From a virus (taxonomy: Duplodnaviria > Heunggongvirae > Uroviricota > Caudoviricetes), in the IMG/VR virus record IMGVR_UViG_2917881069_000005: a stretch of 34,239 bases of DNA. One strand, given 5' to 3'. A program made the translations under genes and the position numbers. Of this stretch, positions 9,674-17,770 are shown in pieces; positions within the stretch are counted from its first letter, which is position 1; each line of letters opens with the position of its first letter. Below the pieces are notes generated by a model. That model had not been told where the DNA came from, ran no database searches, and was given only the letters and a program-made list of their open reading frames with translations.

Positions 9674-10162
9674 ATGAGTCTTTTGAATGAAGTTCAGAAA
9701 TTCATTGAAGCCCATCCGGGGTGTACTTCCGGAGACATTGCGGATGCTTTTACAGGTTACTCACGGCAGCGCGTTCTGCAGTCAGCAAGCAAGTTACGTC
9801 AGAGTGGGCGTGTGGCTCACCGTTGTGAAGGGGATACACGCAGACATTTCCCGCGCCTGACTGAGAGAGCGCAGGAGCCGGAACCACAACCAGTTCGTGA
9901 AACCAGACCTGTGCGCAATTTCTATGTCGGCACTAACGATCCACGGGTGATTTTGTGCCTGACCCGCCAGGCTGAAGAACTGGAGTCAAGGGGCTTATAC
10001 CGTCGTGCTGCAACCGTGTGGATGGCGGCATTCCGTGAAAGCCACTCCCAGCCAGAACGAAACAATTTTCTGGCGCGTCGTGAGCGGTGCTTACGGAAAA
10101 GCAGCAAGCGCGCTGCATCGGGTGAAGAGTGGTATCTGTCAGGGAATTACGTGGGGGCTTAA
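9674..10162 (+). CDS. PerC-like putative transcriptional regulator
   Basis: C-terminal LESRGLYRRAATVWMAA resembles PerC-family motif; ATG 9674 preceded by AGGGGG. Confidence 0.4.
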   Translation: MSLLNEVQKFIEAHPGCTSGDIADAFTGYSRQRVLQSASKLRQSGRVAHRCEGDTRRHFPRLTERAQEPEPQPVRETRPVRNFYVGTNDPRVILCLTRQAEELESRGLYRRAATVWMAAFRESHSQPERNNFLARRERCLRKSSKRAASGEEWYLSGNYVGA

Positions 10163-10815
10163 TGAGTAATAAATATTGCCAGGCGCTGGTGGAACTGCGG
10201 AACAAACCAGTCCATGAACTGAAGGAAGTGGGCGATCAGTGGCGCACGCCGGACAACATTTTCTGGGGAATTAACACCCTGTTTGGCCCGTTTGTTCTGG
10301 ATCTGTTCACTGACGGTGATAACGCCAAATGTGCTGCGTATTACACGGCGGAAGACAACGCGCTGGCGCATGACTGGTCAGAACGTCTTGCGGAGCTTAA
10401 AGGTGCTGCCTTTGGTAATCCCCCATACAGCCGCGCCAGTCAGCATGAGGGGCAATACATCACCGGCATGCGTTACATCATGAAACATGCCAGTGCCATG
10501 CGTGATAAGGGCGGGCGCTATGTTTTCCTGATCAAAGCTGCCACCAGCGAAGTGTGGTGGCCGGAAGATGCGGACCATATTGCTTTTATTCGCGGGCGTA
10601 TTGGTTTTGAACTGCCTGCCTGGTTTATCCCGAAGGACGAGAAGCAGGTGCCGACAGGAGCGTTCTTCGCTGGTGCTATTGCTGTTTTCGACAAGACCTG
10701 GAAGGGACCGGCAATCAGCTACATCGGGCGCGATGAACTTGAGGCATGTGGTGAGGCGTTTCTGGCGCAGGTTCGCCAGCAGGCGGAAAAACTGGTCAGG
10801 GAGATGGCGGCATGA
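10162..10815 (+). CDS. phage-type DNA N6-adenine methyltransferase (Dam-like)
   Basis: NPPY motif (GNPPYSR); start at MSNKYCQ with TAATG overlap; ORF track 10129..10815. Confidence 0.75.
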   Translation: MSNKYCQALVELRNKPVHELKEVGDQWRTPDNIFWGINTLFGPFVLDLFTDGDNAKCAAYYTAEDNALAHDWSERLAELKGAAFGNPPYSRASQHEGQYITGMRYIMKHASAMRDKGGRYVFLIKAATSEVWWPEDADHIAFIRGRIGFELPAWFIPKDEKQVPTGAFFAGAIAVFDKTWKGPAISYIGRDELEACGEAFLAQVRQQAEKLVREMAA

Positions 10816-12354: not shown

Positions 12355-13350
12355 GTGACCGTGAGAGCACTACTGACCCCTGAAATTGCCCCGCGTATGG
12401 GGATCGTATTGTTCAGACCAGGTTCAGAGCTGATGCCCCTGTTTATGCAGGGGCGTGTCCTGCTGGAGCCTGAGCCGGAACGTTATTCATCTTTCGCCAG
12501 TGGTGCCGTTCCGGCGGCATCACAACCGCTGGCGGATGATCCTGCCGTTCAGGCCGTGTTCCGCAATGAGGCAGTGATCCGTCGTGCTGGTGGCGTGGAA
12601 TGTCTTGAAAGCTGGTTACTTCGTGAAAAAGGCTGCCAGTGGCCTCATTCCGACTGGCACAGCGAGAACATGACCACAATGCGACACGCTCCGGGCGCAA
12701 TCCGTCTGTGCTGGCACTGCGATAACCAGCTGCGCGATCAGTTCACGGAACGGCTGGAATCAATGGCAACGGATAACTGTGCCCGCTGGGTGTTGTCTGT
12801 TGTGCGTCGGGATCTCGGTTTTGATGATAGTCACGTTGTGACAATGCCGGAACTGTGCTGGTGGCTGATTCGTAATGATCTGGCGGATGCCTTACCGGAA
12901 AGTGCAGCCCGTAAGGCACTGAGATTACCGAAGCCTGTTGTGCCGTCTGTTACCCGGGAAAGTGACCTTGTGCCTTCGGTTCCTGCCACCAGCATCATCC
13001 AGGATAAAGTGAAAAAGGTGCTGGCGCTGAAAGTGGATCCGGAGTCGCCGGAGTCTTTTATGTTACGCCCAAAACGTCGCCGCTGGGTTAATGAAAAGTA
13101 CACACGCTGGGTTAAGACACAGCCGTGTGCATGTTGTGGTAAGCCTGCTGATGATCCCCACCACCTGATAGGTCACGGTCAGGGTGGAATGGGTACAAAA
13201 GCGCATGACCTCTTTGTGTTGCCTTTGTGCAGAAAGCATCACGACGAGCTGCATGCGGATACCGTGGCATTTGAAGAGAAGTATGGCTCCCAGCTGGAGC
13301 TGATATTTCGTTTTATCGATCGTGCGCTGGCAATTGGCGTGCTGGCCTGA
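12355..13350 (+). CDS. DUF968-type protein with C-terminal Cys/His (HNH-like) motif
   Basis: CACCGKPADDPHHLIGHGQGGMGTKAHDLFVLPLCRKHHDELH; GTG start. Confidence 0.55.
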   Translation: MTVRALLTPEIAPRMGIVLFRPGSELMPLFMQGRVLLEPEPERYSSFASGAVPAASQPLADDPAVQAVFRNEAVIRRAGGVECLESWLLREKGCQWPHSDWHSENMTTMRHAPGAIRLCWHCDNQLRDQFTERLESMATDNCARWVLSVVRRDLGFDDSHVVTMPELCWWLIRNDLADALPESAARKALRLPKPVVPSVTRESDLVPSVPATSIIQDKVKKVLALKVDPESPESFMLRPKRRRWVNEKYTRWVKTQPCACCGKPADDPHHLIGHGQGGMGTKAHDLFVLPLCRKHHDELHADTVAFEEKYGSQLELIFRFIDRALAIGVLA

Positions 13351-13371
13351 TTTTGTGGAGAAAGTTGATGC

Positions 13372-13734
13372 GTGATATTCAAATGGTTCTTGGAACGTTG
13401 GGGGGCATGGGTGGCAAATAATCACGAGGATGTCACCTGGTCGTCTATTGCTGCAGGATTTAAAGGACTAATCCCTTCAAAAGTAAAATCCCGCCCGCAA
13501 TGTTGTGACGATGACGCGATGATCATTTGTGGGTGCATGGCTCGCCTGAAAAAGAACAACAGCGATTTGCACGATTTATTAGTGGATTATTATGTAGGTG
13601 GTATGACGTTTATGGCGCTTGCCCGTAAACATGGGCGTTCTGATTGCTGGGTTGGGCGTTTATTGCAAAAGGCTGAAGGTGTAGTTGATGGCATGTTAAT
13701 GATGTTAGAAATTGAGCTAGAGATGGATCGTTAG
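13372..13734 (+). CDS. late antiterminator Q (short QuuD-type); N-terminus frame-disrupted
   Basis: [27 protein letters not shown] is Q-family-like; long frame can only start at GTG 13372, while a well-placed ATG (13368, GGAG 8 nt upstream) is in another frame and stops after 17 codons. Confidence 0.6.
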
Positions 13735-13776
13735 AAGACCTCTTATTGAGGGGGTAATTGAATCAGTTTAATGTGT

Positions 13777-13807
13777 GGGGAGTCGATTTATTCTCCCCAT
13801 TTTATTT
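13777..13807 (+). terminator. hairpin plus T-rich tract just downstream of Q
   Basis: GGGGAG-N10-CTCCCC followed by ATTTTATTT. Confidence 0.4.
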
Positions 13808-13818
13808 AATTAATTTAC

Positions 13819-14265
13819 TTAAGGTTTTAATTCATCAAGACGTTGTTGGATAGTGTTTTTGCTTGCGTTGTCTGTTATAGCCATTTGTTGTACTTGCCCC
13901 ATTGCCATTTGAGTTTCCATCCACATATCGGCCCACACTTTTGTATCGTTATTAACTTGAGCGATAGTAAATCTGACTTTTGATACCGGGGTTGTTGAAT
14001 AGGCATTGCCGATTAACATTTGTCCAAAAACAGCAGAGCCGCCTTCCAGTTCTTTACCACATATAACACTGCTGTTATCCGCGTTGTAAATTATCAACCC
14101 TCTACTATTGCAGTAATTCACAAGGGCATCTTTGACTTTATCTTTTGTCATATTTTGATAAACCCCCTCAGGTTTTCCTGATTGAGTTTTCTTTATCAAT
14201 GGTACGGAAGAAGTACAACCTGAAATGATAGTTGCGCTAAGTAATAGTACAGTCATTTTATTCAT
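13819..14265 (-). CDS. lipoprotein (moron, opposite strand)
   Basis: 148 aa; signal peptide with lipobox LLSATIISGC; encoded against the direction of flanking late genes. Confidence 0.6.
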   Translation of the reverse strand: MNKMTVLLLSATIISGCTSSVPLIKKTQSGKPEGVYQNMTKDKVKDALVNYCNSRGLIIYNADNSSVICGKELEGGSAVFGQMLIGNAYSTTPVSKVRFTIAQVNNDTKVWADMWMETQMAMGQVQQMAITDNASKNTIQQRLDELKP

Positions 14266-14330
14266 GTTTCTTATCCATTGTTAAGGGCATACCCACACAA
14301 TTATTTTTATTGGAGATGAATAATCAACCG

Positions 14331-14413
14331 TTTACAATCGTAAAAAATCAAATATGCTGTTAAGAGTGGTTACTTCGCCACACAACTTAAACCCGCCGCT
14401 GAGCGGTTTTTTT
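14331..14413 (+). promoter_or_regulatory. candidate late promoter (PR'-like) with short leader and T7-tailed hairpin (tR'-like)
   Basis: TTTACA-N16-TATGCT followed about 40 nt later by CCGC-loop-GCGG and TTTTTTT; weak stem, so tentative. Confidence 0.25.
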
Positions 14414-14511
14414 GTACCTGTAAACTTGGTGCAGTACAGTAAACACGCTGGTGGTCGTGAATACTGACTTTTTATCTTGCTGGCTTTTTAGACAAGAGTT
14501 ATTGGTATGTC

Positions 14512-14739
14512 ATGTTAACCAGAAGGGGAAAAGACATGCTAAAACAGCAAGATATGACAGAAACCGCCGCCGCAGTCCTTCATTTCTTACCTGCTGACAA
14601 GTGGGTAACGCCACGCATGATGACGAGAACTACCGGAGTAAGCGAAGCCCGGTGCCAGTTAATACTGACCCAGTTAGTTCTGGCGGGTCTGGCGAAGGAT
14701 AACGGCGGGTACGGGAATAAATTCAGACGCTGCCAGTAA
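14512..14739 (+). CDS. small hypothetical protein, possibly winged-helix
   Basis: 75-aa ORF; no family recognised. Confidence 0.3.
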   Translation: MLTRRGKDMLKQQDMTETAAAVLHFLPADKWVTPRMMTRTTGVSEARCQLILTQLVLAGLAKDNGGYGNKFRRCQ

Positions 14740-14889
14740 TGGCGGTTTCCTGCTGTGAAAATGGGCGGCTGGTGGGTGTTGGTAGCACCTGCCAGCCATT
14801 CGCTCATGCTTACTGGTCACAAGCGAACCACGGCCCACTGCTTTAGCGCAAAAGCAGAGTGAGCCTACCAGAGTTACGCTTACTGATCC

Positions 14890-15942
14890 ATGAAAAACAC
14901 TGTAAAAATAAACAGCGTTGATTTAATCAACGCTGATTGCCTGCATTTTATTCAGTCCCTGCCTGATGATTCCATTGACCTGATTGTTACCGATCCGCCG
15001 TACTTCAAGGTGAAACCCAACGGCTGGGACAATCAGTGGAAAGGGGACGAAGATTACCTTAAGTGGCTGGATCACTGTCTGGCCCAGTTCTGGCGGGTGT
15101 TAAAACCTGCTGGAAGCCTTTACCTGTTCTGTGGGCATCGCCTGGCATCTGATATTGAGATCATGATGCGTGAACGTTTCAACGTGCTTAACCATATCAT
15201 CTGGGCGAAGCCGTCCGGACGTTGGAATGGGTGTAATAAAGAAAGTCTGCGCGCATATTTTCCTGCCACAGAGCGCGTTCTGTTTGCTGAACATTACCAG
15301 GGGCCATATCGCGGCAAAAGTGACGGCTATGCGGCAAAAGAAAGGGAACTCAAACAGCACATAATGGCACCGCTGATATCGTATTTCAGGGATGCTCGTG
15401 CCGAACTGGGTATAACGGCAAAACAAATTGCCGAAGCCACAGGTAAGAAAAATATGGTTTCCCACTGGTTTGGTGCCAGTCAGTGGCAGTTGCCGAATGA
15501 GGCTGACTATCGGAAGTTACAGGCACTGTTTTCCCGTATAGCGGCAGAGAAGTTTCAGGAACAACAACTGGAACAACCACACCACCAGCTGGTGGCATCT
15601 TATGATTCACTGAATCGCAAATATTCTGAATTGCTGGATGAGTTTAAATCTCTCCGGCGCTATTTCTCCGTATCAGTCTCCGTGCCTTATACCGATGTCT
15701 GGATGCATAAACCCGTTCAGTTCTACCCGGGTAAACATCCGTGTGAGAAACCGGCGGATATGCTCAGGCAAATAATCAATGCCAGTAGTCGACCTGGTGA
15801 GCTGGTTGCTGATTTTTTTATGGGATCCGGTTCCACAATAAAAGCAGCAATGGCGCTGGGGCGTCGGGCCTTAGGTGTTGAGCTTGAGTCAGAGCGGTTT
15901 AACCAGACAGTGAAAGAGATAAACGAGCTGGTGGGGAAATAA
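14890..15942 (+). CDS. DNA methyltransferase, N6_N4 (beta-class amino-MTase) family
   Basis: DPPY motif (LIVTDPPYF) near N-terminus and AdoMet motif FFMGSGST near C-terminus; 350 aa. Confidence 0.8.
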
Positions 15943-15945
15943 TCT

Positions 15946-15973
15946 GGTGGCCACGTCAGGTGGCCTTTTTATT
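15946..15973 (+). terminator. rho-independent terminator between methyltransferase and holin
   Basis: GGCCAC-gtcag-GTGGCC followed by TTTTTATTT. Confidence 0.5.
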
Positions 15974-16009
15974 TCCATTACACAGCACCCGCATCTGCGA
16001 GGTGGGGTT

Positions 16010-16225
16010 ATGAAATCCATGGATAAGTTAACAACGGGTGTCGCCTATGGCACCTCAGCAGGTAGTGCCGGGTACTGGTTTTTACAGTTGCTCGATAAAG
16101 TCACGCCCTCACAGTGGGCGGCAATAGGTGTGCTGGGTAGTCTGGTATTTGGCTTGCTGACGTATCTGACAAACCTTTATTTCAAGATTAAAGAAGACAA
16201 GCGTAAGGCTGCACGGGGAGAGTAA
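16010..16225 (+). CDS. pinholin (phage 21 S21-like) with dual start
   Basis: MKSMDK dual-start motif; closely matches recalled S21 ([17 protein letters not shown]...[13 protein letters not shown]...[20 protein letters not shown]); ORF track 15947..16225. Confidence 0.75.
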
Positions 16226-16229
16226 TTCA

Positions 16230-16544
16230 ATGACTCAAAACTATGAACTGATTGTGAAAGGGATCCGCAATTTTGAGAATAAAGTTACGGTAACTGTAGC
16301 GTTACGGGACAAAAAACGCTTTGACGGTGAAATTTTTGACCTGGACATCTCGCTGGACCGTGTTGAAGGTGCCGCGCTGGAGTTTTATGAGGCAGCAGCC
16401 AGAAGGAGCATCAGACAGGTCTTCCTGGATGTTGCTGCCGGGTTATGTGAAGGGGACGAGCTGTTGCCAGAAACGCGCCCCTGTTCAGAGGCGCGGTATA
16501 CCATAAAAATTAACAGTTCTGATAACTCGATTAAGGGTTGTTAG
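16230..16544 (+). CDS. hypothetical protein inserted between holin and endolysin
   Basis: 104-aa ORF with GGAG upstream; no family recognised. Confidence 0.4.
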   Translation: MTQNYELIVKGIRNFENKVTVTVALRDKKRFDGEIFDLDISLDRVEGAALEFYEAAARRSIRQVFLDVAAGLCEGDELLPETRPCSEARYTIKINSSDNSIKGC

Positions 16545-16599
16545 CTTTTTGCAGTTGGCTTTCCAGTATCTTTCATTGGTAGCATCCTGATAAATATCC

Positions 16600-17598
16600 A
16601 TGAGCGCAAAAATCAAATACGGCCTGTCAGCTGCTGTTCTGGCGCTGATTGCTGCAGGCGCGTCTGCTCCTCAAATACTTGACCAGTTTCTGGATGAAAA
16701 AGAGGGTAACCACACTACGGCATACCGCGATGGTTCCGGTATATGGACCATCTGTCGTGGTGCCACAATGGTGGATGGTAAGCCCGTCATACCGGGAATG
16801 AAGCTGTCGAAGGAAAAATGCGACCAGGTTAACGCTATTGAACGTGATAAGGCGCTGGCATGGGTGGAGCGCAATATTAAAGTACCACTGACCGAACCAC
16901 AGAAAGCGGGTATAGCGTCATTTTGTCCCTATAACATTGGCCCCGGTAAGTGTTTCCCGTCGACGTTTTATAAGCGGCTGAATGCCGGTGATCGTAAGAG
17001 TGCATGCGAGGCGATTCGCTGGTGGATAAAAGATGGTGGGCGCGATTGCCGCATACGTTCAAATAACTGCTATGGACAGGTTATTCGTCGTGACCAGGAA
17101 AGCGCATTAGCCTGTTGGGGGGATAGATCAGTGAGCAGAGTCGCCGCGATTATTTATGCTCTGGTTATCTGCATCATCGTCTGCCTGTCGTGGGCGGTCA
17201 ATCATTACCGTGATAACGCCATCGCCTACAAAGAACAGCGTGATAAAAAAGTCAGTGAGCTGAAGCAGGCGACCGCCACCATTACTGACATGCAGCAACG
17301 CCAGCGTGCTGCTGATGTACTCGATGCTAAATACACGAAGGAGTTGGCTGATGCGAAAGCTGAAAATGATGCTCTTCGGCGCAAGCTTGATAATGGTGGT
17401 CGGGTGCTCGTCAAAGGAAAATGCTCTGTGCCATCCTCAGCCGAAACCTCCAGCGCCTCCGGCATGGGCAATGATGCCACCGTCGAACTCTCTCCAGTTG
17501 CTGGACGAAACGTTCTCGGTATCCGGGACGGAATCATCAGAGACCAGACAGCACTGAGAACGCTTCAGGAATATATCAGGACGCAATGCCTTCGATGA
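16600..17598 (+). CDS. SAR endolysin (T4-lysozyme-type, P21 R-like) whose frame runs without a stop into Rz
   Basis: N-terminal signal-anchor ([18 protein letters not shown]) and lysozyme core ([22 protein letters not shown]); no stop before Rz; G6 run at about 17117-17122. Confidence 0.7.
17131..17598 (+). CDS. Rz: i-spanin Rz
   Basis: [34 protein letters not shown]... nearly identical to recalled lambda Rz; GTG start preceded by GGGGGGA. Confidence 0.75.
17351..17557 (+). CDS. Rz1: o-spanin Rz1 (embedded in Rz, +1 frame)
   Basis: [19 protein letters not shown] lipobox, Pro-rich [12 protein letters not shown]; inside ORF 17306..17557. Confidence 0.7.
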
Positions 17599-17770
17599 TA
17601 GCGATTAATTTTACTCATCATCCTTCACATCTGGCTCTGTAGACAGGGTGGTGATCACTTCTGGAGTGAATCCAGATTAAACATCTCATTGCTGATGCTT
17701 GAAGTTGAGCATCTGGCGCGCGGTAAGGGGCTGCGTTGAAATAAGAGCCAGTCATTACAAATACCAGGAT

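Follow-up and report, generated by a model that had tools for sequence, protein, structure and literature searches.

Organization of the interval from Q to the holin gene

The DNA analyzed here (IMG/VR record IMGVR_UViG_2917881069_000005, 34,239 nucleotides, hereafter the window) is part of a lambda-like prophage of E. coli in which the late antiterminator gene Q, a lipoprotein cassette, the late promoter PR' with the first late terminator tR', a winged-helix gene, a DNA methyltransferase (methylase) gene and a holin gene follow one another in that order. An earlier note, made from the sequence alone, had described positions 13735-15975 as one moron zone. Two distinct units were found, unit 1 at 13735-14329 and unit 2 at 14536-15942; the description thus fails for the interval as a single zone and holds for the lipoprotein, the sole element with moron properties. 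The proposal that the interval carries approximately 2.2 kb of cargo was borne out, the DNA being extra by comparison with DLP12 and H-19B, in which little or nothing separates Q from the late genes. The position is also a cargo hotspot as proposed, being occupied by nmpC in DLP12 and by stx with tRNAs in the Stx phages. The region is probably the late-control module of a lambdoid E. coli prophage of the mEp460/cdtI-like kind, to which two independent kinds of accessory DNA have been added. The layout is genuine, yet it is a variation on arrangements known from other coliphages. The phages PhiR40.1 and PhiR55.1 show 98.9% identity over the region and are temperate and plaque-forming, which argues that the architecture is functional.

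Terminators and promoters were sought with a consensus scan that was judged against shuffled sequence. Terminator-like sites were enriched (14 found versus 4.0±1.9 in the shuffles). Promoter-like sites were not above chance (7 found versus 6.2), for which reason the assignment of PR' stands on homology and not on the consensus scan. No tRNAs were found within 13000-17000. The single Rfam match, to the family STnc130 on the minus strand, was taken as chance, the score of 26 bits (E 0.6) lying below the gathering score of 55.

Q, PR' and tR'

The Q gene lies on the plus strand at 13372-13734 and encodes 120 amino acids from a GTG start at 13372. The deduced protein matches PF06530 at 159.6 bits over profile positions 7-118 of 118 and the solved Q21 protein structure 6P18 with an E value of 2e-9, and belongs to the Q21/Q933W antiterminator family defined by Yin et al. 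The nucleotide identity is 82% to quuD of DLP12 and 77% to Q of the Stx1 phage H-19B. When six Q proteins were aligned, a core that is almost invariant and closes with ...LEMD was apparent; after it come short tails specific to each genome, which read R in the window, IVVNNSN in QuuD of DLP12 and ADCSK in strain 190693, and which in H-19B extend for 24 residues overlapping PR'.

The homology with H-19B ends at the Q stop codon and resumes at 14330, one base before the -35 hexamer of PR' (TTTACA-16-TATGCT, 14331-14358, plus strand), a promoter that also appears in the consensus scan. From 14330 to 14418 the window is 80% identical to the PR'-terminator block of H-19B, through the hairpin and the run of seven thymines (T7), and the corresponding 28 bp in the Shigella phage Ss-VASD are annotated as the late promoter PR'. 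In addition, 14330-14412 is 85.5% identical to a block of DLP12 located approximately 120 bp upstream of the holin gene essD. The segment 14331-14413, approximately 600 bp past Q, is therefore identified by homology as the predicted PR' and tR' that belong to this Q subfamily, in agreement with the PR'-like promoter and T7-tailed hairpin that the earlier note had considered possible. We infer a PR' transcription start near 14365.

The terminator tR' (AACCCGCCGCTGAGCGG-T7) was assigned by the scan and by homology to 14390-14413 on the plus strand, with the hairpin at 14395-14407 followed by T7. In the annotations of SfV and Ayreon a terminator is marked at the equivalent place. In mEp460 and Ayreon (loci L002 and L003, 2424-2448 and 3101-3124) the hairpin is doubled and stands on either side of an inserted open reading frame (ORF) of 138 codons.

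A hairpin of the form GGGGAG-N10-CTCCCC follows Q at 13777-13796 (13777-13807 with its tail; free energy (dG) -14.5, z -3.2). The hairpin is where the earlier note had placed it; however, the T-rich tail is on the plus strand only, the minus-strand tail reading ACACAUUAAA, so that it would stop transcription leaving Q and is no terminator for the lipoprotein gene. It likely insulates the convergent lipoprotein gene from read-through out of Q.

The interval between the Q core and PR'

The content of the interval between the Q core and PR' differs among genomes that share this Q. Nothing is inserted in H-19B, the porin gene nmpC occupies the interval on the opposite strand in DLP12 (locus L017, 2030-4326), and the gene encoding the 148-residue lipoprotein occupies it, also on the opposite strand, in the window. 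In strain 190693 (locus L018, 4003-4527) a gene on the opposite strand encoding a lipocalin-family lipoprotein (lipobox LIAC) directly follows the same Q core, and there, as in the window, Q is separated from the convergent gene by a plus-strand T7 terminator; a homologous PR' block was not detected downstream of the lipocalin gene in that strain. The comparison suggests that the interval from ...LEMD to the -35 hexamer of PR' is a recurrent slot for convergent envelope-protein genes, which is recognized here for the first time.

The arrangement quuD-nmpC-PR'/tR'-essD rrrD rzpD of DLP12 is the closest to that of unit 1, having in common with it the homologous Q and PR'-tR' blocks and a gene for an outer membrane protein on the opposite strand that is bounded by the same pair of junctions, one where the Q core ends and the other 1 nucleotide before the PR' -35 hexamer. 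The two differ in the cargo, a porin in DLP12 and the lipoprotein in the window, in the hairpin adjacent to Q, which has its T-tail on the minus strand in DLP12 and on the plus strand in the window, and in the absence from DLP12 of the winged-helix and methylase pair after tR'. The lc porin gene of phage PA-2 is a parallel to the nmpC case. The phages H-19B and 933W share the Q family with the window and likewise carry cargo downstream of tR', namely stx, whereas Q of H-19B is 24 residues longer at the C-terminus, overlaps PR' and has nothing inserted behind it. The window has no homologue of the small RNA StxS, the H-19B sequence past the first hairpin showing no similarity to it, and no terminator corresponding to that at +258.

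Comparison with phages encoding an unrelated Q of 250 amino acids (SfV, mEp460 and Ayreon) identified a further junction. Homology with these phages is lost at 13362 and regained at 14390, exactly at the tR' hairpin, and the hairpin AACCCGCC..GCGG(G)T7 is common to all of the Q types compared. The tR' hairpin, which flanks the inserted ORF on both sides in mEp460 and Ayreon, seems to act as a recombination joint for the insertion of cargo.

The lipoprotein cassette was found in 185 of 5426 complete E. coli genomes (3.4%), always in the arrangement Q-cassette-PR'. Its guanine-plus-cytosine content (13650-14550) is 35-38% versus 48-57% in the flanks. Thus, the cassette is present or absent at one position among relatives and differs in base composition from the flanking phage DNA. 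The variable content of the slot, together with the presence of homologues at approximately five other positions in prophages, indicates that the lipoprotein gene is a mobile moron.

The lipoprotein and its homologues

The ORF at 13819-14265 on the minus strand encodes a lipoprotein precursor of 148 amino acids with the N-terminal sequence MNKMTVLLLSATIISGC, in agreement with the opposite-strand lipoprotein and ISGC lipobox reported in the earlier note. The signal is canonical (MNKMTVLLLSATIISG preceding the lipobox cysteine), with the n-region, h-region and lipobox reading MNK-MTVLLLSATI-ISGC and conforming to the pattern [LVI][ASTVI][GAS]C. The lipobox cysteine, Cys17, is invariant in 21 aligned homologues, being one of 25 invariant columns of the alignment, and is followed by threonine at position +2. 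The mature protein is 131 amino acids in length. The lipoprotein belongs to phrog_3152, which is annotated as being of unknown function. No match was found in Pfam, NCBIfam, PADLOC or the PDB sequences, and a literature search by protein accessions and the PHROG identifier returned nothing on the protein. The AlphaFold2 (AF2) model (pLDDT 85) has a helix-grip fold resembling the lipoprotein domains of BamC and Flpp3 and KA1 domains.

A word-indexed search retrieved 31 clusters, all from Enterobacterales and none with a Pfam domain or an informative name, and an exhaustive profile search retrieved 823 cluster representatives at E≤0.001. Some relatives of the domain (within P0123-P0270) bear C-terminal PDZ, SHOCT or BamD/YfiO-like TPR domains, fusions that fit a periplasm-facing module for protein interaction. 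Judged from these sequence relationships, the domain looks like an undescribed family of envelope domains. At the loci examined outside E. coli, the homologues were always in prophages and occupied approximately five other positions, among them an interval flanked by the tape-measure gene and gpM in Citrobacter and in a metagenome contig, one flanked by gpK and gpJ in Salmonella and Jejubacter, a P1-like darA/ddrB region in Enterobacter, and an early region in Phytobacter where a recA-like gene is the neighbor. The homologue lies within a tail-gene cluster at four of the loci outside E. coli (L007, L008, L012 and L013), and at four homologue loci the gene is followed on the same strand by a CCCGCC..GGCGGG-T7 terminator.

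A candidate sigma-70 promoter of the lipoprotein gene (TTGATT-16-AATAAT) is located on the minus strand at 14300-14327, back to back with PR'. A conserved promoter that travels with the gene was not found, as the sequences that precede the homologous genes could not be aligned with one another.

The winged-helix and methylase genes

The first gene of the late transcript lies on the plus strand. The small ORF of 75 codons reported in the earlier note is present at 14512-14739; however, the ATG at 14536 is preceded by a good Shine-Dalgarno sequence (AAGGGG) and the homologues uniformly begin with MLKQQDMT, which together make the product of 67 amino acids (14536-14739) the likelier one. The deduced protein belongs to phrog_331, and some of its homologues contain PF17782 or are named as members of the TrmB family. 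A helix with the sequence RCQLILT is invariant among the homologues. The AF2 model (pLDDT 86.6) contains helices at residues 7-17, 26-33 and 37-49 and strands at 53-55 and 63-65, and a Foldseek search with the model returned Z-alpha (TM 0.82) as well as the DNA-binding domains of TrmBL2, NsrR and IclR. The modeled structure identifies the product as a stand-alone winged-helix protein with a predicted DNA-binding function.

The gene at 14890-15942 on the plus strand encodes a beta-class N6-adenine methyltransferase of 350 amino acids that matches PF01555 at 143 bits, consistent with the N6_N4 methyltransferase recognized in the earlier note. The Pfam match is split around residues ~125-280, DPPY is found at residues 35-38 (TDPPYF) and FFMGSGS near the C-terminus, and the order of the motifs is that of M.EcoGII. 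The enzyme is 99.7% identical to that of phage cdtI. Alignment with M.EcoGII over the full length showed 280 of 349 residues identical (80%) and 90% positives; the reference sequence was machine-read from the PDF of Supplementary Table S1 of PMC11551740, so that a few of its residues may be wrong. M.EcoGII and M.EcoGI are encoded by prophages of E. coli O104:H4, and M.EcoGII resembles the window enzyme also in its length of approximately 349 residues and in having an N-terminal DPPY, a central four-helix target-recognition domain and a C-terminal FxGxG. Adenine is methylated by M.EcoGII whatever the surrounding sequence (Murray et al. 2018, PMC5778455). By its similarity to M.EcoGII the window enzyme would be non-specific for adenine as well, a prediction tempered by the 20% of residues that differ, some of them in the central domain. 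M.EcoGIX was considered and set aside in favor of M.EcoGI and M.EcoGII, as it is described in the literature as plasmid-borne and of unrelated context. A restriction-modification system was also considered and rejected, there being no adjacent restriction gene; the methylase is an orphan.

The same pair of genes follows the tR' hairpin in SfV (orf47 and orf48), mEp460, Ayreon and NU14, and lies downstream of Q and upstream of stx2e in phiP27 (L23 and L24). The pairs of SfV, phiP27, cdtI and mEp460, annotated in the last two as hypothetical protein and DNA methylase, have the order found in the window and precede lysis or stx genes. They differ in their surroundings in that SfV and mEp460 encode the different Q of 250 amino acids, and all four phages carry that Q or other inserts and have no lipoprotein cassette. 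The consensus scan revealed no recognizable promoter belonging to the pair. The location downstream of PR'-tR' on the late strand makes the winged-helix gene and the methylase gene most likely late genes that depend on Q, and not morons.

A sister prophage in E. coli strain E2 (locus L011, 4132-5889) retains the arrangement Q-lipoprotein-PR'-small ORF with the methylase replaced by a helix-turn-helix protein, tRNA-Ile/Arg/Arg, a TerB-family protein (terB) and DUF3927. The replacement reveals a second exchange point immediately after the winged-helix gene.

Several features within and around the pair were noted. The 156 nucleotides that separate the winged-helix gene from the methylase gene fold at -61.6 kcal/mol (z -2.6) and contain at 14767-14797 a strong, apparently perfect 14-bp hairpin (GGCUGGUGGGUG...CACCUGCCAGCC) without a T-tail, which is possibly an element for RNA processing or stability. 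A 10-bp palindrome (CAGCGTTGATTAAATCAACGCTG) followed by a T-rich run occupies 14913-14935 on the minus strand, just within the 5' end of the methylase gene; it is the top-scoring terminator-like site of the scan and may be either a coding coincidence or a stop for antisense transcription. By synteny with the annotation of NU14, the ORF at 10129-10815, which stands upstream of LexA-like, RusA, KilA-N and DUF968 genes, would encode a second, Dam-type enzyme ('phage N-6-adenine-methyltransferase'). Should the synteny hold, the phage would have an early adenine methylase as well as a late one.

The terminator after the methylase gene and the lysis genes

The hairpin terminator that the earlier note had placed after the methylase gene was confirmed at 15949-15973 on the plus strand (hairpin at 15949-15965 followed by a T-run; dG -15.6, z -3.5). 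It is the second and stronger of the intrinsic terminators on the late transcript, and the annotations of SfV and Ayreon likewise mark a terminator there. The lysis cassette opens with the gene at 16011-16225 on the plus strand, which encodes a phage-21-type class II holin S with the dual start MKSM (PF04971, 120 bits), corresponds in position to a gene that bears the annotation holin in relatives, and marks the right-hand limit of the cargo. A gene of the DUF1327 (YdfR) family at 16230-16544 separates the holin and endolysin genes in the window; Ayreon and NU14 are without it at that position. Further downstream, 16600-17598 is a single ORF of 332 codons that combines lysozyme and the Rz spanin (PF00959 and PF03245), which are encoded by the separate genes R and Rz in relatives.

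Discussion

The features identified above suggest the following course of late transcription. In the lysogen, transcripts from PR' would stop at tR', and those that leak through would stop at the stronger terminator at 15949-15973 such that the holin gene stays off. Upon induction, polymerase modified by Q would pass both terminators and the methylase would be made along with the lysis and morphogenesis proteins. The enzyme would then modify most adenines of the progeny DNA, which would be shielded from adenine-sensitive restriction in the next host while the lysogen is not poisoned. In unit 1, the lipoprotein gene would be transcribed in the lysogen from its own promoter independent of Q, and the plus-strand hairpin after Q would keep early transcription from running antisense through it. 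The lipoprotein would be lipidated and, based on the threonine and not aspartate at position +2, sorted to the outer membrane to act on the envelope.

Findings of several kinds weigh against this course of events. No Q-binding element or sigma-dependent pause element was recognizable in the window, both being undefined for this subfamily, and nothing that clearly resembles a -10 element was evident in the initial transcribed region after PR'. The candidate promoter of the lipoprotein gene matches the consensus at 9 of 12 positions, which is no better than chance, and is not conserved in the homologous cassettes elsewhere. The lipoprotein gene of the window has no terminator tail on its own strand, unlike its homologues elsewhere. 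The tR' hairpin is weak in this lineage, with a stem of 4-5 bp and a z of -1.8. Term-seq of the Sakai Stx phages showed that the short PR' transcript ends 258 nucleotides downstream of PR'. In H-19B, used as a stand-in for the Sakai phages, the hairpin homologous to tR' is at approximately +50 and a second terminator-like hairpin near +258, which suggests that the hairpin at +50 may leak and that the methylase may not be fully silent in the lysogen. Finally, insertions in Q and at the junction of endolysin and Rz, described below, indicate that this copy of the prophage may be damaged or mis-sequenced.

A leaky tR' also bears on whether the winged-helix and methylase genes are late genes at all. 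They could be genes of lysogenic conversion that are reached by constitutive transcription from PR' through the weak tR', in which case the terminator after the methylase gene would be the functional tR' and the enzyme would methylate part of the host genome, either as protection against restriction or with epigenetic effects. The weak folding of tR', with a stem one G shorter than in other lineages, the location at 15949 of the only strong plus-strand terminator before the holin gene, and the transcript end and hairpins of the Stx phages, which suggest that polymerase passes the first hairpin, are all in accord with this possibility. It is nonetheless considered unlikely. M.EcoGI and M.EcoGII are reported not to be expressed in their lysogen and to be harmful when expressed constitutively, such clones of M.EcoGII growing poorly (PMC5778455). 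Murray et al. guessed that M.EcoGII is switched on at induction (PMC5778455). In addition, the pair shares the orientation of the late operon and lacks a recognizable promoter of its own. Since M.EcoGII is reported to be silent in lysogens, silence of the window methylase in the lysogen is what Q-dependent expression predicts and would refute nothing. The second terminator protects the holin gene whether or not tR' leaks.

The missing terminator tail on the strand of the lipoprotein gene could have a further consequence, in that the lipoprotein mRNA might run antisense into the 3' end of Q, a parallel being the paQ antisense RNA of lambda. It can be imagined, although we consider it quite improbable, that the slot is dedicated to convergent envelope genes whose transcription in the lysogen locks the late genes, combined with a family of lipoproteins that block superinfection. 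The antisense RNA would damp accidental production of Q and hence of the methylase and holin. If true, the lipoprotein would be the first characterized member of a large envelope domain family (823 clusters) that is absent from Pfam and used by prophages against superinfection.

Relative to PhiR40.1, NU14 and mEp460, the window contains three single-base insertions, all within homopolymer runs. An extra G at 13392 (window 13368-13395) breaks the frame of the Q start used in relatives, an ATG equivalent to 13368, such that the first eight codons are shifted and the ORF is held open by the GTG at 13372 in another frame, giving Q a different N-terminus of seven residues. An extra G at 17117 in a run of G (ttgggggg) fuses endolysin to Rz and accounts for the ORF of 332 codons. 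The third insertion, a T at 17605 in a T-run, lies just past the lysis genes. The occurrence of three homopolymer insertions within 6 kb points to errors of sequencing in the source assembly, which they resemble, but they could represent real decay. Were the prophage decaying, the cargo might be inert and both the lipoprotein ORF and the small ORF non-functional, for which the alteration of the Q N-terminus, the fusion of endolysin to Rz and a copy in E. coli SCU-306 that is frameshifted throughout can be cited. That the cargo is inert is nevertheless very improbable. The insertions are typical of sequencing error, near-identical phages are viable, and the lipoprotein ORF is intact and 98-100% conserved over the 185 genomes. 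Across genera, where identity is 49-72%, the 25 invariant columns are clear evidence of purifying selection on the lipoprotein, and the helix of the small ORF product is invariant across homologues that are approximately 50% identical.

With regard to the role of the lipoprotein, lambda Bor confers serum resistance, whereas Cor of phi80 and N15 and Llp of T5 block receptors, and gene 15 of HK97 is a superinfection-exclusion moron located within the tail-gene region. Like these, the lipoprotein is encoded by a small, separately oriented envelope gene that is prophage-borne and present or absent among related genomes; unlike them, it has the helix-grip fold and is larger, at 131 residues in the mature form, and it has no sequence similarity to any of them. 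The leading guess, which is a tentative one, is that the lipoprotein would act at the cell surface to exclude superinfecting phage, as Cor, Llp or HK97 gp15 do, by analogy with these proteins and from the presence of four homologues inside tail-gene clusters. It is also possible, if doubtful, that the lipoprotein serves host fitness or virulence and not exclusion, through serum resistance such as that conferred by Bor, adhesion, or modulation of envelope stress via a periplasmic partner. In this regard, the same slot contains the nmpC porin in DLP12 and the same Q core precedes a lipocalin, neither of which is a known exclusion protein, the PDZ and BamD-like TPR fusions in the family of 823 clusters suggest protein-protein interaction in the periplasm, and the fold resembles the lipoprotein domains of BamC and Flpp3. 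However, searches of Pfam, NCBIfam and the PDB sequences revealed no similarity to Bor or a known virulence lipoprotein, and the four loci in tail-gene clusters outside E. coli are in a setting where exclusion morons are known.

None of the findings overturns current understanding, and each component of the region has a close precedent: DLP12 for the slot, H-19B and 933W for Q-PR'-tR', M.EcoGII for the enzyme, and SfV together with phiP27 for the pair of genes. The new elements are modest and comprise, in addition to the slot, an uncharacterized lipoprotein family absent from Pfam and the explicit placement of an M.EcoGII-type enzyme behind a late terminator. The position behind PR'-tR' documented for the window methylase is absent from the published work on M.EcoGII and supplies a regulatory logic by which the enzyme would be a Q-dependent late product. 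The layout, with a Q-controlled terminator before the gene and a second terminator after it, explains how a methyltransferase that is harmful when constitutive could be carried safely by a prophage. M.EcoGII itself is sold as a reagent. The layout further predicts heavy adenine methylation of the DNA that these phages take out of the cell, a matter of relevance to host range and to defenses based on restriction or dependent on N6-methyladenine. With respect to unit 1, E. coli prophages have repeatedly placed an envelope-protein gene on the opposite strand after this Q, namely a porin, a lipocalin lipoprotein and the 148-residue lipoprotein, with both junctions established for the porin and the 148-residue lipoprotein. 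The lipoprotein domain, found in 3.4% of complete E. coli genomes and absent from Pfam, would be a cheap candidate for a screen of superinfection-exclusion and envelope phenotypes.

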